Made by a program: the position numbers and the translations under genes. Source: a phage. Taken from it: a stretch of DNA of 64,000 nt. The stretch's first letter is position 1; each line of letters opens with the position of its first letter. Of the stretch, positions 819-39,530 are shown piece after piece. Below the pieces are notes generated by a model, which was given only the letters and a program-made list of their open reading frames with translations, was not told where the DNA came from and made no database searches. Where the stretch lies: assembly GCA_025812035.1 (NCBI GenBank), contig GCA_025812035.1_4719.1, one strand, 5' to 3'.

Positions 819-848
819 CCTCCTCCAACCCGTAAGGGAAGGAGGAGG
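819..848 (-). terminator. GNRA-loop hairpin, family copy 1 (CCTCCTCC-AACCC-GTAA-GGGAA-GGAGGAGG)
   Basis: Perfect 8-9 bp G/C stem with A.A internal mismatch and GTAA loop, just 3' of the minus-strand gene ending at 859; no strong U-tract. Confidence 0.6.
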
Positions 849-858
849 GTTATGGTGG

Positions 859-2148
859 TTATGCTTTTTCGGTCACAGCGTTGAAGTATTTCTCTGCAGC
901 AAATACAGCATCCGCATATTGACGTACGGAGGCACGAAGGATCTTGGTTGACAGTACGGTACTTAAACGCGCCATTTCAGAAACCGCACCCACATAAGGA
1001 CGGATGGTTTCACGATCGGCTTCAGGCAGCTTGTCAAGCATGTCGCCCCACTTCGTTTTGATTTTCATACCGTTGAGTTTAGCGGTACGCTCCACAGAAC
1101 CAGCTAAAGCTTCAACCATGTGGAAATAAGAGGGGTCGATCGTACGGAACACGTTAAGATAGGAAGTTAACGCACCTTTCAGTTCGTTATCATCTTTGAA
1201 AATGTTTGCGTTCTCTATCTCACCGGCCACCGTCATCTCGGCTTCAACACGAATATTTTTCACCAACGCATAGGCTTTAATCGCGTCACGTTCGTTTTCA
1301 ACAGCATCGAGACCTTGAATAACGAATTCCTTCCCACCGCTCTCTGGAAAAACAACTTTATTCAGCGCGGATTTGATCGCCAGCAGGTATTTGTCTAAGA
1401 TAGATGGAAGCAGTGTGATGTCGGTGAGGTCTGCGACCTTTTTATTGATATCAGCTACTTGCTTAAACAATGAATCTACACCGCTTGCGCTTCCAGCGAG
1501 TTGTTCGATATGCTTGCTTGCGAACATGGCATTCGCTGACTTCGCATTAGGGAACATATTGACCATATTTTCAGTGGGCTTATCCAGTTGTTTGATATGG
1601 CGTTCACCTTTATTCACGGCGGTTGCGATGCCGACAATTTTGTTGTATGCGACGACCAGGTTCTTGAACAGTACCTGGAGCAGTTTGAACAGCTGCTCAG
1701 CGATATTTGCAATGATTACCCAAACCGCATATAACGCTTGTGCTGCGCGTTCTTTAAAGCCTTCCAATACAATGGCTTGCCCTTCCACTAACTTATCATT
1801 AGCCTGGAACATGTCTTCATCGGACATCCCCAGGTTTGCTGCTGACGTCGAAGCAATCTGACGGATAAGTGCGACGTCGCTAGGACGCGCTTCCGAGATC
1901 GTTGGTGCGATCATGTACGCTGTATCTTCCAGCGTTGCTGAGGTACGCACTGCGATTTCAGCCAGTTCGCTGGATTCATCGATTGTTTCGTCGGTACGTT
2001 GAATCACCAACTCAACTTCGTCCTCTTCGATTTCTGCGTTAGGGTCGTTCTGCTCCGCCGGAATCGCTGCGAGGAGATCTTCAGCACTCAGTAGAGAGAG
2101 TTCGAATGCGTTTTTATTGATGTTATCAAAAAGAGAAATACGAGCCAT
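859..2148 (-). CDS. Paralog family protein, 429 aa (putative internal head/ejection protein; function unknown)
   Basis: Long ORF, ATG with AAGGA SD; acidic N-terminal region; shared module PSDVALIRQIASTSAANLG ... IVLEGF followed by Trp-containing amphipathic helix. Confidence 0.6.
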   Translation of the reverse strand: MARISLFDNINKNAFELSLLSAEDLLAAIPAEQNDPNAEIEEDEVELVIQRTDETIDESSELAEIAVRTSATLEDTAYMIAPTISEARPSDVALIRQIASTSAANLGMSDEDMFQANDKLVEGQAIVLEGFKERAAQALYAVWVIIANIAEQLFKLLQVLFKNLVVAYNKIVGIATAVNKGERHIKQLDKPTENMVNMFPNAKSANAMFASKHIEQLAGSASGVDSLFKQVADINKKVADLTDITLLPSILDKYLLAIKSALNKVVFPESGGKEFVIQGLDAVENERDAIKAYALVKNIRVEAEMTVAGEIENANIFKDDNELKGALTSYLNVFRTIDPSYFHMVEALAGSVERTAKLNGMKIKTKWGDMLDKLPEADRETIRPYVGAVSEMARLSTVLSTKILRASVRQYADAVFAAEKYFNAVTEKA

Positions 2149-2157
2149 GTTAGTTCC

Positions 2158-3474
2158 TTAACCTTTGGTATAAGCGTTAACGAGAGTGTTGATGAATGAA
2201 GTCAATGCACGAAGATATTGATAAGCGAATTGGTTTTCAAGGCGGTTCTCTTTACCACAAAGTAGAATCGCGCGTTTAACGAGCTTAGGATAGATCTCGA
2301 CGTACGGTTGATAGCTTGTATCAAAATTCTGCTCGTTGAAGCGTTTCATGGTGATTTCCTGGATACGCTCCATGGTGCGAATTTTATTGCGAGAGAACAT
2401 CTCAGAGAAAGCACGTCCACGTTTTGTTACCATCAGCAAATCTTTCGCGAACGTAAGTTGTCGAACACTACGTAATTCGTCAGGTGTTGGCAGGACGTAT
2501 GTTTCTGGATCGCTATCCCATTCAACATCTTCAACGACGATATCCAAGTCAAGGTAGTGTTTAACCGCATCGATGATATTGTCTTTTGACGCATCGAATT
2601 CTTTCAGGAAGACCGCCCCGTTGATGTAACGGATGCGTTTCCCGGAAACCGTTGGAGTGATAACGTCAGCACCTTCCACGGAACCGCGATTTTCCAGTGT
2701 CGATTTGACAGCGTTTAAGAAAGACAGATAATCAACGGGAAGTTTTTCAACCTTATCTAAATGGAAGTCGATGATGTTTAATCCTAACCCATCAATAACC
2801 GAATAGCCGTCCGATTTAAGGAACATCTGATTGAAGGTTTCGATGTTGCTTTTCAGCGCGTCTACACCCCCAACTTTGTTACGGTTAGGGAAAAGCGTCC
2901 GCCACCCCGCTTTAAACGCAACCTCTTTATTTTCCTTGTATTTGCCTTTGGGCATCTGTTCGAGGGCCGCAACGGCTTTCTGAAAATTGCGTGTTTCGTC
3001 GTAAACAAGATGGGTAAGCTTCTCGAAGGCCGCTGCCAGGGTCAGGGCAATATCAACTATGATATCCCAGATCTTTTTCATGGCTTTTACAACGGTGTCC
3101 TTAAACCCTTCAACAACCAAAGCTTCTCCAACTTCAACACGATCGGTTGGAGCTAACAGTGTTTCAGAGGGTAGACCCAAGGCAATCGATGCGGATTCTT
3201 GAACGTTACGAACCAATGCAACGTCGCTGTAATTGGCCGATTCGATCGTCGGGGCAACATCAAAACTGATTTCCCGTAACGCCTCAACAGCAGGGAAAGC
3301 ACGATCAAGCGCATCCTCATGTTCGTCGATTGTCACCAAACGTAATTCAACGCCGTCCGCGTCGATGACTTCAGCTGTCGGTTCCACAGCAAGTGCTTCG
3401 GCAACGACGGGATCTTTTTCAAAAGCTTCAAGGCTAATATCGCCTTGTGTTTTAAATAGTGGTATACGTACCAT
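2158..3474 (-). CDS. Paralog family protein, ~438 aa (putative internal head/ejection protein)
   Basis: ORF track 2158..3498; start moved to Met-9 (MVRIPLFKTQ) which follows GGAGA and lies downstream of hairpin ~3523-3554. Module YSDVALVRNVQESASIALG ... LVVEGF. Confidence 0.6.
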   Translation of the reverse strand: MVRIPLFKTQGDISLEAFEKDPVVAEALAVEPTAEVIDADGVELRLVTIDEHEDALDRAFPAVEALREISFDVAPTIESANYSDVALVRNVQESASIALGLPSETLLAPTDRVEVGEALVVEGFKDTVVKAMKKIWDIIVDIALTLAAAFEKLTHLVYDETRNFQKAVAALEQMPKGKYKENKEVAFKAGWRTLFPNRNKVGGVDALKSNIETFNQMFLKSDGYSVIDGLGLNIIDFHLDKVEKLPVDYLSFLNAVKSTLENRGSVEGADVITPTVSGKRIRYINGAVFLKEFDASKDNIIDAVKHYLDLDIVVEDVEWDSDPETYVLPTPDELRSVRQLTFAKDLLMVTKRGRAFSEMFSRNKIRTMERIQEITMKRFNEQNFDTSYQPYVEIYPKLVKRAILLCGKENRLENQFAYQYLRALTSFINTLVNAYTKG

Positions 3475-3522
3475 GTGTTGTCTCCAGTAACAATTCAAAA
3501 GATAAACCAGAACGGCATAAAC

Positions 3523-3554
3523 CCCTCTCCCAACCCGTAAGGGAAGGGAGAGGG
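3523..3554 (-). terminator. GNRA-loop hairpin, family copy 2 (CCCTCTCCC-AACCC-GTAA-GGGAA-GGGAGAGGG)
   Basis: Same architecture with compensatory changes in the outer stem; 3' of the gene ending at 3577. Confidence 0.6.
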
Positions 3555-3576
3555 AATATATCAGTTTATTAACCGA

Positions 3577-4905
3577 TTATTGCTGTGCTGCGTCAGCCGG
3601 TTTCTCAGCCGCCTGGCCGCCGTACTCTTTCAGCATTTTAGCAGCGCCATCCAGTACAGCATTACCTGCCTGAACACCGTACTTCATCAGGCCGGTCTGC
3701 GGATTCACGTAGCAGGAACGTGCGTCTTTCAGAGCAGACAGTACAGCTTGAACACGCTGTTTTTCCTGAGCGGAAACTTCGCCTTTCTTAGACAGATCAG
3801 CTTCCATATCGTCGCCGAATTTAACAGCGTCTTTGAAGCCCTGGGATTTCTTACCGATGTTGCCTTTCAGCGCCAGCAGTTTGTCAGCCAGTACTTCAAC
3901 ACTGCTAACTGCGGCAGCCAGCTGATTCAGAGACAGTACAGTTGCTTCAACTTCTTTCGCTTCACCGGAACGTTCCCAGGTTACTTTACCGTCGTTGGTT
4001 TTGAAACCCCAACCCGCCGGGCCAGCAACGTCAGCAATCGCCGGTGCGTTCAGTTTATCTGCGTACTCGGTGTGGGACTTAGCAACAACGGTGTTGACGA
4101 ATTTATCAGCACGGTCGTCAGCAGCCTTCATTGCTTTCTCGAAGGTGTCAGCGATTTTAGTTGCACCGGTAACCAGATCGTCACCGCCGATATAACCTGA
4201 AACGCCGCTACCCAGTTTAACTTTGGCATTTTTAGCAGCGCCTTTACGTTTGGCGATCATTTCTTTCAGTTTAGCGGCACGTGCTTTCAGTTTGGTTGCG
4301 CCGTCGAAGATACGATCCATGAACTTCACGAAGGTTTCCCAGGAAGTTTTCAGGAAGTTCTTGATGGTTGCCCACAGTTTCTGCCACCATTTTTGTTCTT
4401 CCAGGAAGATCATGTTGGTTGCATCGTAACGGGAAGCGGAGCCACCGAAGCTTTCGAAGGACGGCATGGTTTCCGGCAGTTTGAAACCGATAGTACCACA
4501 CAGGCGTTTCAGGTTACGCATGTGTTCCTGAGCGGTTTGTGCAGACATACCACCGTCTTTCAGGTAGCTTTCGGTTGCAACAACGGTTTCCGTCAGTTCG
4601 TCCATGGCTTCGTCCATGGCTTCTGCGGTTTCGTCGTCTTTTGCAATTTCGATAACAACAGCATCAACCTGCTCGATATCGCCACGAACTTCGATAGCCA
4701 GTTCGGTTTCAGCTGCGGTATCTTCAGCGATTTCAGCGCGTTCGGTCAGTTCAGCTACAACGGTTTCATCATCTGCTGCTGCTGCGGCATCAGCTGCCGG
4801 TTCTGCTTCAACGGTTGCCGCTGCATCCGGATCGATCTCAGCAGCCAGTTGAACCAGCTGTGCGTTAGATGGATTTGCGACAAGACGATCAAAAATAGAA
4901 GGCAT
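3577..4905 (-). CDS. Paralog family protein, 442 aa, Ala/Asp/Glu-rich N-terminus (putative internal/scaffold-like protein)
   Basis: Long ORF with AAAGGA SD; strongly acidic Ala-rich N-terminal ~100 aa; central region similar to the neighbouring paralogs. Confidence 0.6.
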   Translation of the reverse strand: MPSIFDRLVANPSNAQLVQLAAEIDPDAAATVEAEPAADAAAAADDETVVAELTERAEIAEDTAAETELAIEVRGDIEQVDAVVIEIAKDDETAEAMDEAMDELTETVVATESYLKDGGMSAQTAQEHMRNLKRLCGTIGFKLPETMPSFESFGGSASRYDATNMIFLEEQKWWQKLWATIKNFLKTSWETFVKFMDRIFDGATKLKARAAKLKEMIAKRKGAAKNAKVKLGSGVSGYIGGDDLVTGATKIADTFEKAMKAADDRADKFVNTVVAKSHTEYADKLNAPAIADVAGPAGWGFKTNDGKVTWERSGEAKEVEATVLSLNQLAAAVSSVEVLADKLLALKGNIGKKSQGFKDAVKFGDDMEADLSKKGEVSAQEKQRVQAVLSALKDARSCYVNPQTGLMKYGVQAGNAVLDGAAKMLKEYGGQAAEKPADAAQQ

Positions 4906-8788: not shown

Positions 8789-11782
8789 ATGAGCGTAACC
8801 AACAAAGATCTTGCTGAACAGCTCAATCGCTACATGCTTTCACCTATTGAAATGCAGGCTGTTGCAAGCGATATGATCCGTTTGGCTTCTGACGGCGAGT
8901 TAACCTTGGTTGATCCCAGCTGTCCGTTTGTCTATCTGCTGGAGGTTGCAACGGCAACGGCGGCGAACCAGAATGCACGGGATGAATCACGTGTTCGCGA
9001 ACTGTATCCGAAACTTGCAACGAACTGGAGCCAGCTCTATCGTTGGATGTATGACGAGTCGTACGTCGGTCGTTTCGCGATGCCGGGTAAAACAGAAATC
9101 ATTTATTCGTTAGGGTACCAGGAAATCCTTGATCGCGCTGTAGAAATTCCAAACACCGCTGCCTCCGACGATTTAAGTCGTTCCTACAGCCGTAAGTTAG
9201 TGATACCGCGTACAACGGCGTTTACGGTAGCCGGAATGGATTTCGGATTGCATTACCCTATCGAAATCCAAGTGCAAGCGCACGATCAGATACGTGCTGT
9301 TTATAACACCGACAACATCAGCCCGTTACAAACCTTGGAGAGTAACCAGGTCGAATACGGGGTTGTTCGCGTAAAAGCGGGTAAGGTGTTGGTTATGCGT
9401 ATCCCGCTGTTCCAGTTTAAAACGCTGGTAAAAGATGTGCCGTTTAACAGCATTCACGGGATGAACAGCAGCATTACCTTCGAAGATCAGTTTTACCATT
9501 GCCGTGCGTATATGTCGTCGGATAACGATACCTGGACGGAGATAGCGACAACACACAGCCAGCAGATCTATGATCCGTTAACACCAACCATCGCGTTACA
9601 AGTAGAAGGGAATAAACTTAACTGGCGTGTTCCTGAAATTTATTTGTCTCAAGGTACGATGGATAAAAGCACCATTCGACTTGAGGTGTTGACGACGAAA
9701 GGGAAAATCAGCGTCGACCCATCCGATTACGATGTGACCGATTGGAAAGATAACTACATCGATTTGTCGCCAAAAGCTGAACAGAAATACAGTGCGCCGT
9801 TAAGTGCGTTCAACATTAAAGGGATTTATAGTGAAGGAGCGTTGTCGGGTGGACGATCCGCGTTAACGTTCGAGGAACAACGTGAGCGTGTTATGGCGGG
9901 CGTGAACAAAACCAAGATACCTATCACGGGTACGCAGGTAGAGCTGGTGCTTCAAGATGCGGGTTACGGGATGGTGACCACCATCGACAACGTAACCAAT
10001 CGTTCGTTCCTGGCAACCCGAGATTTACCGCAACTGAGCGATAGCGTGCCTCAAGCCGGTTCGTTGATGGGGTCTTTCTATACGTCAGCTGCAGCATTGG
10101 TGAAAAGTAAGTTTGTCGCTGATAACGGCGATCGCATTACGATTAAACCGGATTGTTTGTATCGCGATAGTAACGGAAGCATTACGTTGTTACCGGACGA
10201 TGAAATCGATCGAATTAACGCGAGTGATTCGGACACTAAGCTGAATGCGGTAAACAATGCCATGCTTTGCTATAGTCCGTTTCATTACGTATTAGACACA
10301 TCTGGTGATTTTGACATCCATGCTTATTACTTGGATAATCCTAAAATCGGCACGCAGGCTTTCCTCGACGCGAACGAGACAATCCCGTTAACCGCCATGG
10401 TAACCGGATACCGTCTGGATCGTATTGCTGAAGGATATCGCCTGAGCCTCATTGTAGAGGGTAACGACGCATGGAAAGCGCTCGACGATAAAAACGTGCA
10501 CGTACAGCTGGGGTTCAATCCGCGGGGTGAGGGTGACTACGCTACGATGTTAGCGTCACCTACAACCGATGAGCAGGGTCGTCGTTTGTTCACCTTCGAC
10601 ATCACCACGAACTATGATTTTACGCGTATCCTGTCTGACGATTCCACGGCGTATGAACCGTATATCGCGTTGACTTCGTTCTCGATGTATGAATCAACGC
10701 CACGGGATTATTGGGCATCGCTGCAGCAGTATCTGGAAATCTTCCACGTGGTGACGGATTATGCGCCAGAAGACGTCGATGGTATTTTACACAGTGCTTC
10801 CGATAATTACCTGGTTAAGAAACTCACGCTTCAAAACGGGTATTGTTTCTACCGTGAACGTCTTACCGCAACCTTTGGTTATGATCTGGATGGTCTCTGG
10901 ATGCGTTCTCGTACGGTGGCCTCGGAGATTACGTATAAGCGTTATACCGAGAACATTCCGTGGTTATACGAAGAAGATATTCCAGCAACCGATGAGACCG
11001 GTTCTGTTATCATTGAACAAGGTGATGATGGTACATTATCGGTTAAATATCTACACCGTAAGGGAGATCCGAAATTAAACAGTGATGGAAGCCAAGCCTA
11101 TCGCTACCTGAAAGGCGACATCATGAAAGATAATTACGGTAATCCGATCCCTGTCGATGAGCGTGAGGTTCTGCGTAACCTGGACATGTTCTTTATTGAT
11201 GCGTCGTATCTGTTAGCGAACGATACAGACGTGATTGCGTATCGTAATGCGATCCCTACGCAACTTATCGAGTGGATCCAGAATGATATCAGCACGTTCA
11301 GGAATTTCTGTTATGAAGAAACAGAGATTTCGCTGTATCCTAAACAATCGCTGGGGTATGTGGATGTTATTGTGGAAAACGGATTGGAAACAACGCTTCC
11401 TGCTGCCCTATCGTTCAACGTGACGCTTTACTTACCGGCTAAGCAATACGCTGACTTGGATTTACGTCAAGTCCTTCAAGCGATGGTGTCGAGAGTCATT
11501 AATGAATGCTTAACATCCCGTACAGTGGCTAAAGCAGAAATGATCGCGATGATTCGTGAGGAAGGAGGTGACGATATCCTGAACGTTGAAATCGATGATT
11601 TTGGACCAGGTAAGAACCTCAGTGTTTATACGGCGAAGAACGATGGCGTTCGTTGTGCTGTGAAGAAAGAGCTTTATGTGAAAGCGGATGGTATCTTGTC
11701 CGTACGCGAAGCGATTGATGTGAGTTTTGTGAAACACGCACAAAGCAACAGCACCGCGTTAGCGCAAGGTCTTCGGATCTAA
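8789..11782 (+). CDS. Hypothetical large protein, 997 aa (possible virion protein)
   Basis: Long uninterrupted ORF starting 4 nt after the upstream stop; no recognisable motif. Confidence 0.65.
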   Translation: MSVTNKDLAEQLNRYMLSPIEMQAVASDMIRLASDGELTLVDPSCPFVYLLEVATATAANQNARDESRVRELYPKLATNWSQLYRWMYDESYVGRFAMPGKTEIIYSLGYQEILDRAVEIPNTAASDDLSRSYSRKLVIPRTTAFTVAGMDFGLHYPIEIQVQAHDQIRAVYNTDNISPLQTLESNQVEYGVVRVKAGKVLVMRIPLFQFKTLVKDVPFNSIHGMNSSITFEDQFYHCRAYMSSDNDTWTEIATTHSQQIYDPLTPTIALQVEGNKLNWRVPEIYLSQGTMDKSTIRLEVLTTKGKISVDPSDYDVTDWKDNYIDLSPKAEQKYSAPLSAFNIKGIYSEGALSGGRSALTFEEQRERVMAGVNKTKIPITGTQVELVLQDAGYGMVTTIDNVTNRSFLATRDLPQLSDSVPQAGSLMGSFYTSAAALVKSKFVADNGDRITIKPDCLYRDSNGSITLLPDDEIDRINASDSDTKLNAVNNAMLCYSPFHYVLDTSGDFDIHAYYLDNPKIGTQAFLDANETIPLTAMVTGYRLDRIAEGYRLSLIVEGNDAWKALDDKNVHVQLGFNPRGEGDYATMLASPTTDEQGRRLFTFDITTNYDFTRILSDDSTAYEPYIALTSFSMYESTPRDYWASLQQYLEIFHVVTDYAPEDVDGILHSASDNYLVKKLTLQNGYCFYRERLTATFGYDLDGLWMRSRTVASEITYKRYTENIPWLYEEDIPATDETGSVIIEQGDDGTLSVKYLHRKGDPKLNSDGSQAYRYLKGDIMKDNYGNPIPVDEREVLRNLDMFFIDASYLLANDTDVIAYRNAIPTQLIEWIQNDISTFRNFCYEETEISLYPKQSLGYVDVIVENGLETTLPAALSFNVTLYLPAKQYADLDLRQVLQAMVSRVINECLTSRTVAKAEMIAMIREEGGDDILNVEIDDFGPGKNLSVYTAKNDGVRCAVKKELYVKADGILSVREAIDVSFVKHAQSNSTALAQGLRI

Positions 11783-11803
11783 AACAAAATAGCAAGTACA
11801 TAA

Positions 11804-11835
11804 CCCTCCTCCAACCCGTAAGGGAAGGAGGAGGG
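11804..11835. terminator. GNRA-loop hairpin, family copy 3, between convergent genes
   Basis: CCCTCCTCC-AACCC-GTAA-GGGAA-GGAGGAGGG between the plus gene ending 11782 and the minus gene ending 11845. Confidence 0.65.
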
Positions 11836-11844
11836 AATATGTTG

Positions 11845-14800
11845 TTATCTTACGTTAGTACTATTCTGCTGTTCGCTGAACCAACCATAAACCTTGAGAT
11901 CGGTACCGTATTTCAGTGCGATATACGCATTCAGTGCTGCACAGAACAAAGACGCGAATGCCCATACCAGCGAAGGATCGACATCTTCCGTTACCGCCAC
12001 CAGGGTAGCCTCTGGTTCCCATGACGGAGAACTGTCTGTAAACGTCGTGAACCATGCCCGACGTTGTTCTTCAGTGGTAAAGTCGCTATGTGGCTCCAAC
12101 GCTTCTTTTGCCAAACGTCGATATTCGGTCATATGAATCGCGAGAGCCGCTGAGCTATCATATTTGCATTCATAGTTCGGATCAACAGCACAACAGAGTT
12201 CTGCGGAATCCAACAAAGCAAGCGCTTGTTTGATGCTGTCGGTGGTGCCTGCACTATAAAGCTCGATAGACTGCGAAAGCTTTTCACAGAACGCATTTAA
12301 CGCGGCAGGATCGGATACCTGAAGGTCAAGACCTAATGTCCACGGATAGTTACTGAACACACCCGTAAACTGCGGCATAACACCCAACAGATGTTGTCCG
12401 ATTACAGCGCGGTTATAAGTAGCCCGATTATAGACTTGAAACGCGGCCTCCAATGCTTGGTTATAATGACGACGAAGTTCGTCACGCGTGTTGCGGAATC
12501 TGTTCGCCGCGAGACTCGTAGCTGCGACGCTACAAACATCGTAACCAGTGGACGAGAGCACAACGTCGTTAAGATCGAACGCTTCCTGTTTCAACGATCC
12601 ATTAACAGCTACCGCTTCGCTGTTCGCTTTATCGACAACCGTACTCAACGCGTTGATATAACGTTTAGCGCGGACTTCCAACCATTGTGCAATACCGAGA
12701 ATATCTACCGCGGCTTTAGCAAGATCGCGTGCGTTCACGATTTCGTTCTTCAAGGCACCCAACCCTTTATTCTCAGGCGAAGAGGCTTGTTGACGAATCA
12801 TGCTGTTTAACATGGTAAGCAGATTATCCAACTCATGTCCGCTGACCTTGTTACGCGCATCGGTAATCGGCCCTTGCAGGAATTTACGGCAACCATCGTT
12901 GTATCGAATCAGTTTATCCACATCGATCGACTCGTTAGCGGATTCCTTGAACTGATTCTTCAATTCTTCACGGTAATCATGAATTTCACTTGCAAGATTG
13001 TCGACAGTGATACCATCATGTTCGAGAAGAACTTTATTGAAGTTACCTTTCTCGAATGCAAGAGCAAGACCTTCGCGAATCTTAGCGAGTTTATCCTGAT
13101 CGAGTTCACGACCGTTTGATAACTCTTTCACTTCCGAGCTGATTAATGCTGCAACGTTACCCAGATTGTCGGTAACCCCTTTGAATGTCCCCGACCAAAT
13201 CGTTCCCGCTTCAGCATATTTCGCAATGGTCTGAATACCGACGGTATGCAATGACGCTAAACGTTTCTTCGTGCCTTCGGTAAGCAGTGCGTCTTTAGCT
13301 CGCGTAAGCTGGCTGTTATTAGCTTCCGCTTGCTGAATCGCTGCTTTCGCATTTCCATTACGCCAGCTCTTAACCAACCAATCAACCAGACGTTTTAGGA
13401 TGTTGACGGTATATTCCATCGTCCGCCGTAACGTCTCCCACGCGCTTTCAGCGGTATAAATGCCGTACCCTTCCATCGTCAACGCTTTCAAGCTTGTTTG
13501 ACGTGCCAGCCATTCTACCGTTGCAGAGCAAACGTTTACTAATGCTTCCAGGTAGTTGTAATAGACGTCTGTTGCCGACGTTTCGTTGAACTTTGAATGC
13601 AGATAGAACTGATCGTAAAGTTCGTCGTCATCACCGAAGGCATCATAGTTCCACAGTTCTGTATCACAACCTGTGCCGCAGAAGACGTCAGCTGTCGTAA
13701 ACTCTTTAAGCGCTTTAGCGGCGTCATTTGTCAGGAATTTACCTGTTTCAACTACATCGTCGACATTAAGTTTGGGGAGTTCGTCGGTGACCGGCTCTTC
13801 CAACATCAGCATATTGAAGAATGTGCTATACTTGTATCCGAGCCATTTTGGATAGCTGCTTTCAGGGATCGTAGACAGCGGCTTGATTTTCTTGGCTTCA
13901 GCCAACGTGTCTTTTGCGACCTGATATTGGTTTTCCCCAGCCTTGACGCGACGTAATGCTTTTTCTTCCAACTGCTTGAGTTTGGTATGTCGTGCTTGTG
14001 CTGGAGCTTCAACAAGTTTTTGTACGGACCGCATTGCTGATATCGCTTCTTTTAATACGATCATCGGCATACGAACTTTACCGTCGTCGAAACTAAGAGC
14101 GCGAGCGACACGTTTACTTACGACAGGCTTATCATGGATATTTCGTTCCACCCACGATTTGTTTGCGTAAGTTTGAGCGATCTGCTGTTGGATATTTTCA
14201 AGGTATTTCCAGCCGTTGGAAGCTTTGTTATCCAGAAGCGGATTCGGTCCCTTCTTATCGAAAAGTTTCAGAATCGGACCAAAGAAACCTTCCTGTACGA
14301 GTTCGATACGCGTGTATCCGTCAGCCGCTTCGATTTCTTCTTGGGTTTTGTCCCAGAGCTGTTCACTACGGACAGCAGTAGCTGTTTCAGATACCGACAT
14401 AACAAGCTCGGCAACAACTTCAGCGCAGGTCAGTACGGTACGCACGCATTGCAGTAGCATACGCTGGTAAACGATACGTGCGTTTTGTAGACGTGCGATA
14501 ACCGCTAAATAACCGATATTGTCAAGACGTTCGTCGGCTTGAGCAGAGTCAACACGTTCTATCAGTTGTTTCACCAACGCGGCTGTTTCCGGATAATCGT
14601 TCACGACGTCACGCATAATTCGTGATGCGAAAACCGCGGTACCTAAAACGTTAAGAAGTGTTTTACCGTCCCATTCTTTTGGTGTCGCTACCGATTCGGT
14701 AGGGATGAGATTTCCCGCTTGGTCGAAGTACGGCATAAGGACATTGATATCCGTAGACGGTACTGCGGTGACTGCGTTGTACTCTTCATCCGCACCATCG

Positions 14801-15450
14801 TCGCCGGATGGTTGTATAGCGAGTGCCTGTTCAAGGATTTTGCGGTCAACAGCATAAAGCGCTGATAGGGCCTGTGTTACCGCAACCAGATCAACAACCG
14901 GTGACCAGAGCTGTGCGAGTTTATCCTTGTATTTCTGTACAGCAATAACGAGGTCTTCTTTTACGTCAGGATGATTGATTAAACCACCCAACGCTTCATG
15001 GACTGCAGAAAAACGTTCAGAATGCGCTTGAGTTAATGCGACAAAATCGTCAACGTACGATGCATTTTCTTCAAGGCGTGCAAGTTCCTGCTCCAGGAGA
15101 TCTTTTACTTGCGTGGCGGATGCGTTTCTCAACTGTTCCCCGATAATCGCGATGGCTTTATCGACAACACGACAAGCTTCATTGAACCCGGTCGTTGATG
15201 GTAACTCGGTCCATAATGCCAGCGGCTTACCTTCCATTGCGTCAGGAAGGGAGTACGACAGCATTGTTAGTTGCTGACGCGATACCTGTTTATCACGATG
15301 TAGCGTTTCTTTCAACGCCAGAAGCTCATCAAGACCCACACTGCTGGGGATCGTGGGATGTGATACAGCGTTGATGTTTTCTGCTAATGACTCAAGAACC
15401 AATAAACCATTTTCAGCGGTAGAGAAACCTGCTTTAAGGTATTTGTTCAT
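11845..15450 (-). CDS. Hypothetical giant protein, 1201 aa (possible virion/ejection protein)
   Basis: Long ORF with GGAG SD; helical Ala/Leu/Glu/Lys-rich; contains IELVQEGF resembling the paralog-module motif. Confidence 0.65.
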   Translation of the reverse strand: MNKYLKAGFSTAENGLLVLESLAENINAVSHPTIPSSVGLDELLALKETLHRDKQVSRQQLTMLSYSLPDAMEGKPLALWTELPSTTGFNEACRVVDKAIAIIGEQLRNASATQVKDLLEQELARLEENASYVDDFVALTQAHSERFSAVHEALGGLINHPDVKEDLVIAVQKYKDKLAQLWSPVVDLVAVTQALSALYAVDRKILEQALAIQPSGDDGADEEYNAVTAVPSTDINVLMPYFDQAGNLIPTESVATPKEWDGKTLLNVLGTAVFASRIMRDVVNDYPETAALVKQLIERVDSAQADERLDNIGYLAVIARLQNARIVYQRMLLQCVRTVLTCAEVVAELVMSVSETATAVRSEQLWDKTQEEIEAADGYTRIELVQEGFFGPILKLFDKKGPNPLLDNKASNGWKYLENIQQQIAQTYANKSWVERNIHDKPVVSKRVARALSFDDGKVRMPMIVLKEAISAMRSVQKLVEAPAQARHTKLKQLEEKALRRVKAGENQYQVAKDTLAEAKKIKPLSTIPESSYPKWLGYKYSTFFNMLMLEEPVTDELPKLNVDDVVETGKFLTNDAAKALKEFTTADVFCGTGCDTELWNYDAFGDDDELYDQFYLHSKFNETSATDVYYNYLEALVNVCSATVEWLARQTSLKALTMEGYGIYTAESAWETLRRTMEYTVNILKRLVDWLVKSWRNGNAKAAIQQAEANNSQLTRAKDALLTEGTKKRLASLHTVGIQTIAKYAEAGTIWSGTFKGVTDNLGNVAALISSEVKELSNGRELDQDKLAKIREGLALAFEKGNFNKVLLEHDGITVDNLASEIHDYREELKNQFKESANESIDVDKLIRYNDGCRKFLQGPITDARNKVSGHELDNLLTMLNSMIRQQASSPENKGLGALKNEIVNARDLAKAAVDILGIAQWLEVRAKRYINALSTVVDKANSEAVAVNGSLKQEAFDLNDVVLSSTGYDVCSVAATSLAANRFRNTRDELRRHYNQALEAAFQVYNRATYNRAVIGQHLLGVMPQFTGVFSNYPWTLGLDLQVSDPAALNAFCEKLSQSIELYSAGTTDSIKQALALLDSAELCCAVDPNYECKYDSSAALAIHMTEYRRLAKEALEPHSDFTTEEQRRAWFTTFTDSSPSWEPEATLVAVTEDVDPSLVWAFASLFCAALNAYIALKYGTDLKVYGWFSEQQNSTNVR

Positions 15451-22138: not shown

Positions 22139-22180
22139 CCCCTCCCCCTGGCGGAAGCCGGAGGGAGGGGTGGAGGTTTT
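22139..22180. terminator. Hairpin plus T-run between convergent polymerase-like gene and paralog array
   Basis: C-rich/G-rich stem (CCCCTCCCCCTGGC / GCCGGAGGGAGGGG) followed by TGGAGGTTTT on the plus strand. Confidence 0.6.
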
Positions 22181-22188
22181 ATGTGTTT

Positions 22189-22638: not shown

Positions 22639-22648
22639 TGATGCTCCT

Positions 22649-23615: not shown

Positions 23616-23645
23616 CGATTCTGTTCCTGTTATAGTCAGTATAAA

Positions 23646-23681
23646 CCCTCCTTCCCTAGCCATCAAGGCCGGGGAAGGGGG
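23646..23681 (-). terminator. C-rich/G-rich hairpin inside the paralog array
   Basis: CCCTCCTTCCC ... GGGGAAGGGGG between genes ending 23694 and starting ~23615. Confidence 0.45.
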
Positions 23682-24101: not shown

Positions 24102-24138
24102 TTTTTATCCTTAATGTTACCGGTTTAGAAATATTATT

Positions 24139-24903
24139 TTATTTACTGTTATCCTTATCGACAGTTGTTACCCATGATGGGAAAGCCGGATGGAAACAGA
24201 GCGTGAACGTAACCTTCGCATCGTATTTAAGCGCGTGGTTCACTAACCGGGTATCGAACGTTTTCCTTAGCCCGTCATCATCATTATCGATGATAGTCAT
24301 ATCCCTTAATATCCCAAGCACGTTAACGCCATCGGGTGTCTGGGTTACGACGACTCGTCGTAACGGCCCATGTGTATAGTCACGTACGTATCCTTTCTTC
24401 GGGTCCGATACTCTGTTTAACGCATCGCGATTTTCGATGAGTTCATCAGCAATACGATAGATGTGTTCCCTTGCTTTATCGTGATCGTATTCTGCTAATA
24501 GTTCCTTTGTATCGAACGATATCGCGTTACTATCATTCGATTCAGAAGGGAAATAAAGAACTAAACGAACAGGGTATTCGTATTGATCCGTTCTCGTTTC
24601 GAAAACACCGGCTAAACATGGTTTATATGCCTTTGCGTCGACGTTGTCTAAACACGGATGCAATAATGCGTGAATAACGACACCATCGTCAGTTAAACCG
24701 AATTCCAGAAATTGTGTTTCATCGGTATCTGTTACCGTTTTCTGAAGATACGCTTTACCGTTAACGATATCGGTATCCCATATATCGTCGTTTAATGATT
24801 CTTCAAACTTATCGAATATAAGGTTTACGGTATCGATGAGTCCATCGATACGCCACTGCTGATTGCTCTCAATTAATTGCTGAACCTTATCTTTGATAGA
24901 CAT
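24139..24903 (-). CDS. Small paralog family protein 5 of 8, 254 aa (extended C-terminus)
   Basis: AAGGAG SD overlapping the upstream stop; N-terminal NLIFDKFEESLNDDIWDTD; central YEYPVRLVLYFPSE matches the family pattern. Confidence 0.6.
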   Translation of the reverse strand: MSIKDKVQQLIESNQQWRIDGLIDTVNLIFDKFEESLNDDIWDTDIVNGKAYLQKTVTDTDETQFLEFGLTDDGVVIHALLHPCLDNVDAKAYKPCLAGVFETRTDQYEYPVRLVLYFPSESNDSNAISFDTKELLAEYDHDKAREHIYRIADELIENRDALNRVSDPKKGYVRDYTHGPLRRVVVTQTPDGVNVLGILRDMTIIDNDDDGLRKTFDTRLVNHALKYDAKVTFTLCFHPAFPSWVTTVDKDNSK

Positions 24904-24905
24904 GA

Positions 24906-25364
24906 TTACTCCTTAGTTCCTTCTTCGTCAGGTGTATACGCCAATGTGAAGAATTCATAACCATCAACAAACTTGAATGTTACTGTAATAGGGAAATCGC
25001 ACGGCATGACGGATTTCATAAATGCATCATTAGCAACCTCAGATAACCGACGTATGACATCTCCCCTGCTGGCGTTGAATGGTAGTTTTATGTCGATAAG
25101 GATGCGGTGCTTGTAAACATAGAAAACAACGGTACTGTCAAGATAAATACCAGAGAGCTGCGTTGTTGGGATGCGTTCCACAATGGAAAAATACGTCCCA
25201 TCAGTATCGCTATTTCCCACCGACCATTTATCGGATTTGCGTAGATTTTCTTTGAGGGATTCGACACTTCGAGTGATGACCTCAACGATAGGCGTGACGT
25301 AAGCGTCTTTATGCGTGTCGAAAAGTTCGTTAACAGTAGACTTGAATGAATATTCTGTTGTCAT
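24906..25364 (-). CDS. Small paralog family protein 6 of 8, 152 aa
   Basis: Start overlaps the upstream stop; VEVITRSVESLKENLRKSDKW ... CDFPITVTFKFVDGYEFFTLAYTPDEEG. Confidence 0.6.
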   Translation of the reverse strand: MTTEYSFKSTVNELFDTHKDAYVTPIVEVITRSVESLKENLRKSDKWSVGNSDTDGTYFSIVERIPTTQLSGIYLDSTVVFYVYKHRILIDIKLPFNASRGDVIRRLSEVANDAFMKSVMPCDFPITVTFKFVDGYEFFTLAYTPDEEGTKE

Positions 25365-27660: not shown

Positions 27661-27689
27661 GTGTTAACAAGAAATAAAACAGCATAGAA

Positions 27690-27729
27690 CCCTCCTCCCC
27701 CATCCTTCAAGAGGACGGTGGGAAGAGGG
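27690..27729 (-). terminator. C-rich/G-rich imperfect hairpin
   Basis: CCCTCCTCCCCC ... GGTGGGAAGAGGG, 3' of the gene ending 27737. Confidence 0.4.
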
Positions 27730-28138: not shown

Positions 28139-28193
28139 GAGGCGCTTTTCCTATTTTTTATTTTCTGCACAGGATAAATTCAACGGCATAAAG

Positions 28194-28225
28194 CCCTTCC
28201 CTGCCCTTATATGGGGCGGGAAGAG
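28194..28225 (-). terminator. C-rich/G-rich hairpin
   Basis: CCCTTCCCTGCCC-TTATAT-GGGGCGGGAAG, 3' of the gene ending 28354. Confidence 0.4.
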
Positions 28226-28353
28226 TTTATGACCGCAATGAGAATCTCTCACGACAAGCTCACGACGATTATCGCATCACCCCGCGAGTGAGGGAGATCA
28301 GGATCACCTCCTACGTCGTAATGACAGCAATCCTGTTAACGCCGCCTTAGACG

Positions 28354-33510: not shown

Positions 33511-33840
33511 ATGAAGCTGAACATCGAAATGGGTATTGCGTACGATACCATGTTCGGTTTGTATGACCGCGTTAACGACTGGACACCGTTGAAATGGGTT
33601 GCCCAGCATCCTGCTGAAGACCCATGGGACAGATTAGGGATTAAACCCTTAATCGAGGATTACGTACGATTCGGTATTAAAGAGTTCATGTCGCTCGACG
33701 CATTTTTAAAAGCACCGTATCCTTATGCGCAAACGGTACTCAAGATCGCACAAGACGAGCTGCGGAAACGCAGTGCTGTATTGGACGACGATGAGGACAA
33801 GTTACGACGAGAAGAAGAACGTTTACGAAACGGAAGATAA
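33511..33840 (+). CDS. Hypothetical protein, 109 aa (possibly the downstream part of a frameshifted product)
   Basis: ORF; its frame is open upstream to ~33310, overlapping the 3' end of the 548-aa gene. Confidence 0.45.
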   Translation: MKLNIEMGIAYDTMFGLYDRVNDWTPLKWVAQHPAEDPWDRLGIKPLIEDYVRFGIKEFMSLDAFLKAPYPYAQTVLKIAQDELRKRSAVLDDDEDKLRREEERLRNGR

Positions 33841-33841
33841 A

Positions 33842-34351
33842 ATGGCGAGATTTACCAGTTTGATTGGGTTGGACATTTGGGAGACACCTGCTGACGTTAG
33901 GGTTATTCCCGTTAACACTGTCGGTGTGATGGGACGTGGTCTTGCGAAGCAGGCAGCCGAGCGTGTGCCCGGTCTTCTTGAAGCGTACCGTAAGCACTGC
34001 TCTGATGGATTTAAGGTGGGCGAAGTCGTATCGTATCAGCACGGCGAGAACGATCAGCTCACCTACGTACTGTTTCCATCGAAATCGGATTGGCGTGAAA
34101 AAACACGACGCGAGTATATCGTTAGCGGCTTACTGGCGTTAAAGGCGTGGTTATTGGAGCTTCAGTTCGAAAGAGATGGCTTCTCATACCGGAGTCCGGC
34201 TGAACCGTTGATCGTAGCGATTCCTCCTGTTGGTTCTGGTTGCGGTAATATCGGTTACGGGCAATCCGAAACAATCCAGCCTCAATGGGTACGCGCACAA
34301 ATCAAACAGTATCTTGCCACCGTACCGAACGTTCATTTCTACTTGTTCTAA
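33842..34351 (+). CDS. Macro-domain-like protein (ADP-ribose binding/processing fold), ~169 aa
   Basis: ORF track 33725..34351; start at MARFTSL after GGAAG and the upstream stop. VIPVNTVGVMGRGLAKQAAERVPG and IAIPPVGSGCGNIGYG resemble the two conserved macro-domain loops. Confidence 0.5.
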   Translation: MARFTSLIGLDIWETPADVRVIPVNTVGVMGRGLAKQAAERVPGLLEAYRKHCSDGFKVGEVVSYQHGENDQLTYVLFPSKSDWREKTRREYIVSGLLALKAWLLELQFERDGFSYRSPAEPLIVAIPPVGSGCGNIGYGQSETIQPQWVRAQIKQYLATVPNVHFYLF

Positions 34352-34367
34352 CGCAAAGGTAACATAA

Positions 34368-34399
34368 CCCTCCTCCAACCCGTAAGGGAAGGAGGAGGG
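34368..34399. terminator. GNRA-loop hairpin, family copy 4, between convergent genes
   Basis: Identical core to copy 3, between the plus macro-domain gene (ends 34351) and the minus gene ending 34417. Confidence 0.65.
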
Positions 34400-34416
34400 A
34401 ATATGCTGTTATGTTA

Positions 34417-34791
34417 TTAATGTTCGTTCCAAATGGCATCTTCCGGTGGGACGATAGGATCTTTCTTCGGCATTGACGGCACTTCATGACGATGCTTACG
34501 GAATTGCCTATCAATAACCTCACGAAGCCGGTACGCGTCAACCCACGTTGATTTATTGAATAACTCCAACGTCACGGTTAATCGCGTTCTTGACATTGAA
34601 TAGCTTTTCTTTGCAATCAAATCGGGATAATTCAGTTGAGCGAACCAGGCACGTATTTGCGCTTCGGTAAAAGCGATGCTGTAATAACTGAGTTTACCAT
34701 CATTAAAATCGTGCGCGTGGGTGTAACGTCCCGCATAACGCCAGACAAGATGCACATTCAGATCGATCCATGGTGGGGTGGTATCAGCCAT
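34417..34791 (-). CDS. Hypothetical protein, 124 aa
   Basis: ORF ending at the bidirectional hairpin ~34368-34399. Confidence 0.5.
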   Translation of the reverse strand: MADTTPPWIDLNVHLVWRYAGRYTHAHDFNDGKLSYYSIAFTEAQIRAWFAQLNYPDLIAKKSYSMSRTRLTVTLELFNKSTWVDAYRLREVIDRQFRKHRHEVPSMPKKDPIVPPEDAIWNEH

Positions 34792-34800
34792 GTGTTACCC

Positions 34801-35370
34801 TCAACGATTCTTCATCACTTTACCCAGGCTTTCGATATTATCCCAAAAGCGATTTTTACTTGGTGCGTCGCCAACGATAACCGACATCAAATCACGACGT
34901 TCGCGACTGATGATACCCTGCGATTTCCAGATCACCATCGTCCAACATGCAGCCAGAACGAACAGATGGTTAATACTCGGTTTGGTTTGTGCGATGAACG
35001 CAAGCCATGCCCAGATACCGGTGTATACTATCGTCACTAAAAAGAGAGAGATTGTTGCAACGACAACAACGAAGTTTTGGATGGCTGGCTGATTGGCATT
35101 ATCCTGAAAAGCGGTAAGATCGGGAAGATTACCTTCAACGGAACTCGTTTCATCGATTTCCAAGTCTTCGATTTCTTTTCGTGTGTCAGGAGCTAATCCA
35201 GCATCATCAAGATGCTTCTTTAACCGCTGAATACTTAATCGCTGACCAACAGGAATGCTGATGTTGTCGTAACTATTAAGCGCATCAACCAGGGAACGTC
35301 CGTCAACGAGAACCAAGCTCGCAGTACCCATCGTCTGCGGTTTTATTTTGTAAAGGTCTTTTACTTTCAT
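34801..35370 (-). CDS. Hypothetical membrane protein, 189 aa
   Basis: Two or three hydrophobic helices (VVVATISLFLVTIVYTGIWAWLAFIA, LFVLAACWTMVIW). Confidence 0.55.
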   Translation of the reverse strand: MKVKDLYKIKPQTMGTASLVLVDGRSLVDALNSYDNISIPVGQRLSIQRLKKHLDDAGLAPDTRKEIEDLEIDETSSVEGNLPDLTAFQDNANQPAIQNFVVVVATISLFLVTIVYTGIWAWLAFIAQTKPSINHLFVLAACWTMVIWKSQGIISRERRDLMSVIVGDAPSKNRFWDNIESLGKVMKNR

Positions 35371-38004: not shown

Positions 38005-38026
38005 TGAAAACCTCAGCCTTTTAGAA

Positions 38027-38668
38027 TTAGATGTACTGCTTACCGCCCACGAAGGAAGTCAGCCAGTTCCCTGAAACAAGCTGCGATACCCAACCGGGTA
38101 CCGCTCTACCATTCTGGCTCATGATGTTACCACACCAACCAGGGAATCCGGGACGGATATAATAGAAAGTTAAATTGTAGAGATGGCAATTCCACACCGC
38201 AACGTTATGTTTACCAGAAACCGCTTTAAAGACAAACGCAACGGGTAAAGGCGACGATAGCAATTCGGTCACAGGGACGGCTGACCAATTCGCATTCGCG
38301 TTCCACGGTTGCCAGGTATGGCTACGCGAGTCGCAAAATACGTTACCGTTGTTACCGCGCCCACCCGCATTCCACCACAGCGACGGACTCATGTTCTTAA
38401 GTGAGGTAAATTGCTGCGGTGGAATATTAGGAATAATAACAGGGTTGGTACCTTGCCCATGTTTCTTTTCTTTTGCGTTCACATACCCGCTTATCGATTC
38501 GAGGTATTTGACACCAGGATAATTGTTCTGGACTTGTGTCGCAATATCACGAACATCAAACGTCCAGCAGATCATGGTGTTGTAGTAAGCATCGGTGTTG
38601 TCGTACCATGCGTTACCATCTTGTAAACGTGCGCCACTATTCGGTGTTTTATCTGTGTTTATAGCCAT
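38027..38668 (-). CDS. Hypothetical protein, 213 aa, conserved-C-terminus pair member A
   Basis: C-terminal ~40 aa (FYYIRPGFPGWCGNIMSQNGRAVPGWVSQLVSGNWLTSFVGGKQYI) nearly identical to the 38780 protein; N-terminus divergent. Confidence 0.55.
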   Translation of the reverse strand: MAINTDKTPNSGARLQDGNAWYDNTDAYYNTMICWTFDVRDIATQVQNNYPGVKYLESISGYVNAKEKKHGQGTNPVIIPNIPPQQFTSLKNMSPSLWWNAGGRGNNGNVFCDSRSHTWQPWNANANWSAVPVTELLSSPLPVAFVFKAVSGKHNVAVWNCHLYNLTFYYIRPGFPGWCGNIMSQNGRAVPGWVSQLVSGNWLTSFVGGKQYI

Positions 38669-38770
38669 GGTATTGTCCTATACGTTGACGGTTGAGATGT
38701 CGGATGCCGGATGTGTGTTGTCATCCGGTGGTACGTACAGAAACACCCACAGATAAAACAGTAGCTTCTC

Positions 38771-38793
38771 TAACTTCAATTAAATTGAAGTTA
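38771..38793. promoter_or_regulatory. 23-bp palindrome TAACTTCAATT-A-AATTGAAGTTA overlapping a stop codon
   Basis: Perfect 11-bp inverted arms at the 3' end of the 38780 gene, adjacent to a second hairpin (CCGGATG...CATCCGG). Confidence 0.35.
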
Positions 38794-39496
38794 GATATTG
38801 TTTACCTCCAACAAACGACGTTAACCAATTACCTGAAACAAGTTGCGATGCCCAGCCAGGCACTGCCCTACCGTTCTGGCTCATCACGTTACCTGCCCAT
38901 CCCGGAAAACCCGGCCGGAAAATATATACTTGAATATGTGTTAAAGCGTTATCATTACCACCGCCAACAGCAACGTTACGACTCCCAGATGACGGGAAAT
39001 ATTCTTTTAAGAACAGAGGATCGGTTGCTAATAAAGATGCGGGCCAAGGGTTCGCGGATGCATCAACATCGAATTCGGTCCATCGCCATTTACGTCCCGT
39101 GTCGAACCATGTCGATGTACCGCCTCCACGCACTGCAAGATTGCGTGCGTCGCGGGCATTGTAAATTGATTCGATGTTACGCCACCCACCTTTTGCGGCG
39201 TTTGCCGCATAGCAAATCGCATTACCACCATTCTTCTTTTCGTAAACAGTTCGTTTGATATGAACACGATCGATGAACGCTTCACCGTATTTGTTGACGA
39301 GCGTTTGTGCGATATCACGAAGATCGTGCATGTGAAAAGCGATGTCTTCGTTATGGAACCATGTTGTCGGGTTCCAGACGGTACCGTTTGGTTCGGCACA
39401 CATCGATCGGATATTGTTGCGTTGATTAACCGCGATAAAACCCATTGTATACCTCGTTCCTATTCTCAAAAAGGAAATTTCATACGATGACGCCAT
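38780..39496 (-). CDS. Hypothetical protein, ~238 aa, conserved-C-terminus pair member B
   Basis: ORF track 38780..39532 begins inside the hairpin; ATG (MASSYEISF) follows AAGGAGG that forms the hairpin 3' arm. Confidence 0.55.
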   Translation of the reverse strand: MASSYEISFLRIGTRYTMGFIAVNQRNNIRSMCAEPNGTVWNPTTWFHNEDIAFHMHDLRDIAQTLVNKYGEAFIDRVHIKRTVYEKKNGGNAICYAANAAKGGWRNIESIYNARDARNLAVRGGGTSTWFDTGRKWRWTEFDVDASANPWPASLLATDPLFLKEYFPSSGSRNVAVGGGNDNALTHIQVYIFRPGFPGWAGNVMSQNGRAVPGWASQLVSGNWLTSFVGGKQYLTSI

Positions 39497-39500
39497 AGCA

Positions 39501-39530
39501 GCTCCTCCTTCCCTTACGGGTTGGAGGAGC
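39501..39530 (-). terminator. GNRA-loop hairpin, family copy 5, inverted orientation; 3' arm carries the SD of the next gene
   Basis: Plus strand GCTCCTCC-TTCCC-TTAC-GGGTT-GGAGGAGC is the reverse complement of the other copies; 3' of the lipoprotein gene; minus-strand AAGGAGG lies 7 nt before the ATG at ~39496. Confidence 0.6.

Follow-up and report, generated by a model that had tools for sequence, protein, structure and literature searches.

Near-identical hairpins in a Goslar-like jumbo phage as probable bidirectional transcription terminators of the phiKZ type

We analysed a stretch of 64,000 nucleotides of phage DNA (contig GCA_025812035.1_4719.1 of NCBI GenBank assembly GCA_025812035.1; hereafter the window) that carries five near-identical hairpins between its genes. 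These hairpins are very probably bidirectional, factor-independent transcription terminators of a class conserved across the nucleus-forming jumbo phages (Chimalliviridae). The terminator class is already known, and some of its members are annotated as putative terminators in Escherichia phage vB_EcoM_Goslar; the inversion of hairpin apices and the conservation of a downstream sequence box across genera are new details. The window is collinear with positions 60223–126653 of Goslar at 91–93% identity. Goslar is a 237-kb nucleus-forming jumbo phage of E. coli, genus Goslarvirus (GenBank record), and RNA polymerase β-like genes are annotated in its homologous region. By this homology, the window is from a Goslar-like chimallivirus with its own multisubunit RNA polymerases. 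Two further Goslar-like genomes from IMG/VR, IMGVR_UViG_3300011560_000001 (U1) and IMGVR_UViG_3300045988_173921 (U2), complete a comparison set of four related genomes that are more than 87% identical. Throughout, ‘family’ denotes the sub-family typified by the five copies and ‘class’ the wider set of hairpins that includes it.

In hairpins of the class, the 5' arm is rich in C/T and the 3' arm in G/A. When the sequence is read in the direction of the gene upstream, a (Y)TTTATGCYGTT box comes 0–3 nt after the hairpin. In the family copies the box stands on both sides, as CATAA...hairpin...(A/T)TATG, and the mirrored flanks lengthen the stem. An initial annotation of this DNA had described five copies, one of them inverted, sitting 3' of genes and in two cases between convergent genes, and all of this is borne out by the sequence:

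Copy 1, 807–854 (hairpin 819–848): CCTCCTCC-AA-CCC-GTAA-GGG-AA-GGAGGAGG, with the outer palindrome GCATAATCAC...GTGGTTATGC and the minus-strand box TGATTATGCTGT at 818–807; 10 nt 3' of the stop codon of the minus-strand open reading frame (ORF) 859–2148.
Copy 2, 3512–3554 (hairpin 3523–3554): covarying stem CCCTCTCCC/GGGAGAGGG, with the minus-strand box GTTTATGCCGT at 3522–3512; 3' of the minus-strand ORF 3577–4905.
Copy 3, 11792–11845 (hairpin 11804–11835): between the convergent ORFs 8789–11782 (plus strand) and 11845–15450 (minus strand), with boxes on both sides, AATATGTTGT (plus strand, 11836–11845) and TTATGTACTTGC (minus strand, 11803–11792).
Copy 4, 34358–34409 (hairpin 34368–34399): between the convergent ORFs 33725–34351 (plus strand) and 34417–34791 (minus strand), with boxes AATATGCTGT (plus strand) and TTATGTTACC (minus strand).
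Copy 5, 39489–39530, minus strand (hairpin 39501–39530): apex in the opposite orientation, with the minus-strand box CTGCTATGGCGT, which includes the ATG (39496–39494) of a 238-aa ORF (38780–39496); 8 nt 3' of the stop codon of the minus-strand ORF 39539–40045.

A 24-nt core, CCTCCAACCCGTAAGGGAAGGAGG, has four exact matches in the window, at 822, 11808 and 34372 on the plus strand and at 39504 on the minus strand, with none expected from 100 shuffles; searching with the 14-nt apex AACCCGTAAGGGAA additionally recovers copy 2. Copy 5 is the inverted one, both in the strand of its core and in the orientation of its apex. Whereas copies 3 and 4 lie between convergent genes, copies 1, 2 and 5 lie between co-directional minus-strand ORFs, 8–22 nt after the stop codon of the upstream ORF. 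All five copies are predicted to fold, and they do so on both strands, into a lower stem of 8–10 bp, a 2×2 internal loop, a 3-bp CCC:GGG helix and a tetraloop (ΔG –24 to –32 kcal/mol; z –3.9 to –6.7). The internal loop is formed by A·A/A·A on one strand and U·U/U·U on the other. The lower stem of copy 1 comprises 8 bp, not the 9 bp first assigned to it. An Rfam scan of the whole window at gathering thresholds gave no matches.

An alignment of 25 distinct 34-nt cores from the four genomes shows how closely the pairing is maintained. Paired positions account for 98.7% of cells, and double compensatory changes occur in 5 of the 12 pairs (41 cells), with neither one-sided changes nor G·U pairs. 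The compensatory stem changes already noticed in copy 2 are true double changes (CCTCTCCC/GGGAGAGG). At the locus of copy 4, the window has the stem CCCTCCTCC/GGAGGAGGG with the loop GTAA and its Goslar orthologue has CCCTCTCCC/GGGAGAGGG with the loop AGCA, while the Goslar orthologue of copy 1 carries a compensated one-base insertion in each arm. Judged from these alignments, the family is non-random and under selection for pairing. Its strictly Watson–Crick stems further indicate that both strands are constrained.

The loop itself is a different matter. A GNRA tetraloop had been proposed as the defining feature of the hairpins, but copies 1 and 2 lie between minus-strand ORFs and are thus transcribed from the minus strand, so that the RNA loop is UUAC; GUAA is found on their plus-strand RNA only. 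Across the family, the loops GTAA, GTGA, GTCA, ATCA, AACA and AGCA occur, and 10 of 36 distinct copies have a non-GNRA loop (GTCA, ATCA, AACA and AGCA among relatives). Moreover, the apical 14 nt are exactly inverted (AACCCGTAAGGGAA to TTCCCTTACGGGTT) at five orthologous loci whose flanks are otherwise identical (for U1, at Goslar 63730 and 224400; for U2, at 4164, 48122 and 174282). On this pattern, the flips are recurrent small hairpin-mediated inversions among close relatives. One of these loci is that of copy 2 (window 3523–3554), and the exact inversions therefore show that apex orientation is functionally neutral even at a co-directional junction. Loop variation, apex flips and the strand transcribed together rule out GNRA as the selected feature.

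The function of the hairpins is suggested by the mapped terminators of two Pseudomonas jumbo phages. In phiKZ, 133 termination sites were mapped by ONT-cappable-seq; the motif BCCYCCCCHWWDGGGRRGGBYTTATKYYGT, derived from the mapped RNA 3' ends, is common to most of the predicted intrinsic terminators, and six overlapping bidirectional terminators lie between convergent genes (PMC10914365, Putzeys et al. 2024). In 201phi2-1, 15 of 132 mapped termination sites are bidirectional, the commonest motif (motif A, n = 59) strongly resembles that of phiKZ according to the authors, and eight terminators picked across motif types gave strong termination in reporter assays (PMC11512511).

The motif in the window is that of phiKZ. 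Its arm design (CCYCCCC...GGGRRGG) is present in the five copies and in at least eight further hairpins. The half-motif GGRRGGBYTTATKYYGT is found with 0–3 mismatches at copies 1–4 and at 27679, 28183, 48516, 51422 and 55716. At up to 3 mismatches it has 15 matches against 8 expected, and the low-mismatch ones all follow hairpins. There is no mismatch at 48516 and a single one each at 27679, 28183 and 55716; the minus-strand flanks of copies 1 and 2 have two and one (in the arm), respectively, and the box of copy 5 is weaker (CTGCTATGGCGT). Scanning positions 1–50 kb of phiKZ revealed the same architecture, including mirrored CATAA...TTATG copies, with aacataatGCCCTCCCGCAATGGGAGGGCTTATGCTGTtaag and a mirrored copy at 34908–34947 both located at convergent junctions. 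An unbiased hairpin scan yielded the downstream consensus GG-TT-TATG-CTGTT for Goslar and GC-TT-TATG-TTGTT for phiKZ, and 58 of 146 hairpins have TAT[GA] within 6 nt, compared with a background of 3.7%. The placement known from phiKZ, that is intergenic, 3' of a sense gene and bidirectional between convergent genes, is found here as well.

Position and strand provide a second line of evidence. About 15 family members are present genome-wide in Goslar, where they occupy 9 of the 20 convergent junctions, as annotated in the GenBank record, against 5 of 229 other junctions (Fisher p = 3e-8). At the co-directional minus-strand junctions of the window and Goslar, the box is found downstream only in 14 cases and upstream only in one (binomial p = 0.001). 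Counted over the non-family hairpins at such junctions, G·U pairs number 20 on the transcribed strand versus 5 on its complement, and it is the transcribed strand that forms the more stable hairpin by 14 to 3. Together, the asymmetries of box side, G·U pairing and stability argue for an RNA-level, strand-specific function of the class. The lack of G·U pairs in the family is in turn expected if its hairpins must fold from either strand.

The five copies form a sub-family of a class with at least 13 sites in the window. At least six more C-rich/G-rich hairpins had been suggested, and at least eight are present, with starts at 22139, 23646, 27690, 28194, 44668, 48526, 51433 and 55726:

22139–22170: CCCCTCCCCCTGGCGGAAGCCGGAGGGAGGGG, at a convergent junction; identical in Goslar (83251–83282).
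23636–23681, minus strand: CCCCCTTCCCCGGCC-TTGAT-GGCTAGGGAAGGAGGG with box TTTATACTGA; member of a second sub-family.
27679–27729, minus strand: unidirectional 40-nt hairpin followed by box TTCTATGCTGT; it has two G·U pairs on the minus strand only (ΔG –30.7 versus –23.7).
28183–28231: CTCTTCCCGCCCC-ATATAA-GGGCAGGGAAGGG, with boxes on both sides, CTTTATGCCGT (minus strand) and TTTATGACCGC (plus strand).
44656–44701, minus strand: CTCCCTCTACCTCG-CTTTGT-CGGGGTAGAGGGGG with box TAATATGCGCGG.
48516–48550, minus strand: CCCTTCCTGCC-TTAC-GCGGGAAGGG followed by TTTATGCTGT.
51422–51447, minus strand: CCCCC-TAAT-GGGGGG with box CTTTATACCGA.
55716–55744, minus strand: CCCTCCC-GTTAT-GGGAGGG with box CTTATGCCGA; nearly the same design as phiKZ GCCCTCCCGCAATGGGAGGGCTTATGCTGT.

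The second near-identical sub-family, CCTTCCC-TAGCC-NTCAA-GGCC-GGGGAAGG, occurs mostly at convergent junctions (window 23646–23681; Goslar 11186–11220, 84363–84400 and 200229–200265). In the Goslar record, which was annotated with ARNold, the orthologue of copy 4 (93445–93476) is labelled ‘putative transcriptional terminator’, as are several other similar hairpins. As the initial annotation had observed for most of the hairpins, classical U-tracts are missing: the flanks read UUAUG, UUUAUG or AAUAUG, and it is instead the conserved TTATG box that follows the hairpins.

How such a signal could work can be outlined as follows. The phage multisubunit RNA polymerases would transcribe the C/T-rich arm, the short apex and the G/A-rich arm, giving rise to a very stable hairpin (–24 to –32 kcal/mol). 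They would reach the (Y)TTTATGCYGT box 2–3 nt later, where a weak rU:dA-rich hybrid would substitute for the customary U-tract and allow release of the transcript, leaving RNA 3' ends at these hairpins; sequence-specific recognition of the box could make an added contribution to release. With a strict Watson–Crick stem and a mirrored box (CATAA...hairpin...TTATG), the RNA of either strand would fold and terminate, which would explain why family copies are preferentially located between convergent genes. The Shine–Dalgarno-like GGAGG and the subsequent ATG would be by-products of arm composition and box, and the hairpin retained at the 3' end would probably shield mRNAs from 3' exonucleases.

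The terminator box holds the same TATG tetranucleotide as the phiKZ late promoter. Late promoters of phiKZ are defined by TATG, with G as +1, and TATG is necessary for late transcription by the non-virion RNA polymerase (nvRNAP) but not sufficient alone for promoter activity (PMC4666361). In this polymerase, TATG on the non-template strand is read by a pocket in the β-like core subunit gp123 (PMC12809450). A speculative extension, which we regard as somewhat unlikely, is that the TTATG box constitutes a polymerase-specific termination code: a gp123-type pocket would re-engage TATG in the course of elongation, causing a pause at the very moment when the hairpin has formed. Promoter and terminator would then share an element that is conserved from Pseudomonas to E. 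coli chimalliviruses, while the two-way cassettes would secondarily act as recombination points, their apices flipping by intra-hairpin recombination.

Several points weigh against the interpretation as bidirectional terminators. The apical AACCC-NNNA-GGGAA is nearly invariant, which exceeds the needs of a plain terminator and may reflect gene conversion or an extra ligand. It is not obvious why a two-way terminator would be required between co-directional genes, which is where copies 1, 2 and 5 are found, and the plus-side box of copies 3 and 4 reads AATATG instead of TTTATG. Window and Goslar sites are partly orthologous, so that the counts in our statistics are not fully independent, and the gene map behind the junction classes is a greedy ORF call. 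Lastly, transcript 3'-end data for this phage or Goslar were not found in the literature searched.

A composite terminator–promoter cassette, in which the hairpin terminates and TATG serves as a late-promoter core that restarts transcription for the next gene, is rather unlikely. The dependence of phiKZ nvRNAP on TATG would suit such a cassette, as would the location of the co-directional boxes 15–135 nt upstream of the next start codon, and T4 PeSLs, which combine a terminator with an early promoter, offer a precedent (PMC4122927). However, convergent junctions retain the box on either side, although a promoter there would yield antisense RNA only, and this makes a promoter role of the box improbable. 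The insufficiency of TATG on its own and the derivation of the motif from 3' ends, not 5' ends, likewise speak against it.

The initial annotation had favoured processing or stability elements over classical terminators. In that case the hairpins would be cut by, or would block, host RNases (RNase III, RNase E or 3' exonucleases), and mRNA ends would be set post-transcriptionally without the polymerase being stopped. The absence of a canonical U-tract agrees with this scenario, the CAUAA/UUAUG extension brings the helix to about 17 bp with an internal loop, and 3'-end mapping in the relatives cannot by itself tell termination from processing. We nevertheless consider a role in processing alone unlikely. 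Trimming from the 3' end would leave an RNA that lacks the box, which lies downstream of the hairpin, yet phages of Pseudomonas and of E. coli alike have conserved the box, and the stem is below the typical length of an RNase III substrate. In addition, the design fits the phiKZ motif obtained from mapped 3' ends and resembles that of 201phi2-1, whose selected terminators, taken across motif types, lowered the downstream reporter. No motif or hairpin preference is reported in the ChmC RNA-binding data.

The near-identity of the copies raises the question of their origin. The cassettes are near-identical over about 50–60 nt including the flanks, of which about 10 nt are common on each side, and stem ‘alleles’ are swapped between orthologues, as at the copy 4 locus. 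In U2, an extra minus-strand gene of ~150 aa is inserted together with a family hairpin, and this hairpin replaces the unrelated 40-nt hairpin found in the window at 27690–27729; terminator cassettes thus appear to travel with gene cassettes. Common flanks, swapped alleles and this replacement suggest concerted evolution and cassette exchange. Compared with Goslar, the window also has a gene replacement at 22139–23140 and an insertion of ~1.2 kb at 23732–24916. The boundaries of both changes are 10–50 nt from the class hairpins 22139–22170 and 23646–23681, which is compatible with PeSL-like recombination.

These same features could be taken to mean that the hairpins are selfish or mobile palindromes, akin to repetitive extragenic palindromic (REP) sequences or miniature inverted-repeat transposable elements (MITEs), or recombination cassettes, whose similarity stems from copying instead of a transcriptional function; the adjacency of several indel boundaries to hairpins would fit as well. 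We regard this as very unlikely, and the evidence does not point to elements that move autonomously. Each of the five window loci has an occupied orthologous counterpart in Goslar, no target-site duplications were seen, and position, box orientation and G·U asymmetry of the class indicate a function in RNA. Nor is the behaviour that of a REP- or MITE-like element: the sole gain seen arrived with an inserted gene (transposases were not searched for). A search of 5,426 E. coli genomes found no match to the 55-nt cassette, and the apical 18-mer is absent from the E. coli genomes searched; in 596 Gb of prokaryotic genomes the 18-mer has 22 scattered single matches, about chance level by our own estimate. 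A host origin or a REP-like element is ruled out by these searches. In IMG/VR, exact matches to the 18-mer are confined to Goslar, U1, U2 and three unrelated contigs, and the degenerate pattern CCAACCCNNNNGGGAAGG gave mostly chance matches on viral contigs. On the minus strand of one unrelated viral contig, IMGVR_UViG_3300020577_003345, the 18-mer lies inside a canonical U-tract terminator, cccCCAACCCGTAAGGGAAGGgggcttttcttt.

Translational control, with the G-rich arm acting as a working Shine–Dalgarno which the hairpin masks or exposes, or which drives tiny ORFs, is highly improbable. The initial annotation had read the arm as a Shine–Dalgarno throughout, and GGAGG followed by an ATG 4–7 nt on is indeed found after most copies. 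This reading is plausible for copy 5, where GGAGGAG precedes by 4–7 nt an ATG (39496) that opens the 238-aa ORF with homologues and is a plausible gene start. Elsewhere it fails, the ATG being part of the conserved TTATGCYGT box, and phiKZ terminators have the same succession of arm and ATG within their TTATKYYGT box. Convergent junctions hold nothing that could be translated. The tiny ORFs can be rejected as coding: they are 5–12 codons long, their sequences differ between copies, including those on the minus strand, and the plus-strand ATG of copy 1 is lost in Goslar.

The gene that follows copy 5 merits a closer description. The 238-aa ORF (38780–39496, minus strand) shares 36% identity with Goslar gp87, and other jumbo phages contain weaker homologues, while PHROGs assigns it to no family; the ORF is a 36%-identical paralogue of the neighbouring gp87-like gene (38027–38668). 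The paralogue is absent from Goslar and U1, where 29 nt replace 722 nt. In Goslar both the hairpin and the ATG persist, and the frame closes after 15 codons; this retention despite the truncated frame is a further argument against translational control. Only 8 nt separate the stem of copy 5 from the upstream stop codon, so translational coupling is conceivable, with a terminating ribosome opening the hairpin. Sequestration of the ribosome-binding site on read-through mRNA is plausible as a local side effect at copy 5 only. Upstream of its ATG, the frame of the ORF continues without a stop across the hairpin as far as another ATG at 39532. That Goslar_00087 is mis-annotated and starts at the box ATG can be ruled out, as the frame stops after 15 codons in Goslar.

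A DNA-level element, either a cruciform or the target of a phage DNA-binding protein with a part in replication, packaging or nucleoid organisation, can scarcely be credited: strict Watson–Crick symmetry, a sequence-conserved apex with a plus-strand bias (12 of 14 copies in Goslar) and apical inversions that reveal interaction of the arms in DNA would fit it, but the copies are confined to sites immediately after stop codons, with an excess at convergent junctions, they have arms and box in common with unidirectional, G·U-containing relatives that must act as RNA, and their orientation flips freely among close relatives.

Other differences between the window and Goslar were noted in passing. 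A 31-nt insertion at 753–783, between copy 1 and the next gene, contains the small hairpin ATGAAGC-AAG-GCTTCAT, and the GGCGG...CCGCC hairpin at 705–726 is the orthologue of an annotated Goslar terminator (60927–60948). In the 1201-aa ORF 11845–15450, the internal segment 13480–15152 differs from Goslar_00064 (1.67 kb versus 0.86 kb). The single uninterrupted 583-aa ORF at 20339–22090 was compared with Goslar 79690–83290, where a 1.78-kb insertion with a NUMOD1/HNH endonuclease gene comes after the DNA-polymerase-exonuclease-like gene 68; Rfam detected no group I intron in this insertion. The tail-fibre region (41150–46600) is strongly diverged from Goslar and internally repetitive, which may reflect differences in host range.

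With these hairpins, the Goslar lineage, the E. coli model of phage-nucleus biology, gains a usable map of likely transcription-unit ends. The conservation of the phiKZ terminator design with its TTATGCYGT box across chimallivirus genera of different hosts argues that the signal is read by the phage polymerases and not by that of the host. For annotators, a Shine–Dalgarno-like arm followed by ATG in these phages usually marks a terminator and not a gene start. Compact two-way terminators could serve as engineering parts, and the coincidence of the box with promoter TATG offers a testable idea on termination by non-canonical multisubunit RNA polymerases.

The overall design of the hairpins is shared with the terminators of phiKZ and 201phi2-1. 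Both have a C-rich 5' arm, a G-rich 3' arm and a TTAT(G)YYGT box 2–3 nt past the stem, lie just 3' of genes with mirrored near-identical copies at convergent junctions, and occur by the dozen in a genome. However, the family stem is two-tiered, with a 9-bp arm, an A·A/A·A (or U·U/U·U) internal loop and a CCC-NNNA-GGG apex, whereas the phiKZ type has a simple 4-nt loop, and the plus-side box is often AATATG here.

When comparing the hairpins with canonical Rho-independent terminators, the stable GC-rich hairpin right after the stop codon is common to both, and the complementary flanks resemble the A-tract/U-tract arrangement of canonical bidirectional terminators. In contrast to these, there is no run of four or more U (only UUUAUG), and GCYGT is conserved downstream; ARNold nonetheless called some of these hairpins in the Goslar record.

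Exact inversion of a segment within short inverted repeats, arising independently at several loci among close relatives, is also what characterises hairpin-associated small inversions. These are described from chloroplast spacers, with Kelchner and Wendel 1996 reportedly an example. Here they occur in phage terminators, as a mutational side effect and not as a function.

Finally, the hairpins are reminiscent of the PeSLs of T4-type phages, which are likewise short conserved stem-loop cassettes repeated between the genes of a large lytic phage (PMC2839356, PMC4122927). Among close relatives, PeSLs mark the boundaries of gene indels, and some indel boundaries in the window adjoin hairpins. An early promoter of the sigma70 type is recognisable in PeSLs, whereas the hairpins here have no more than the 4-nt TATG in common with a promoter core, and a role in recombination is only suggested.

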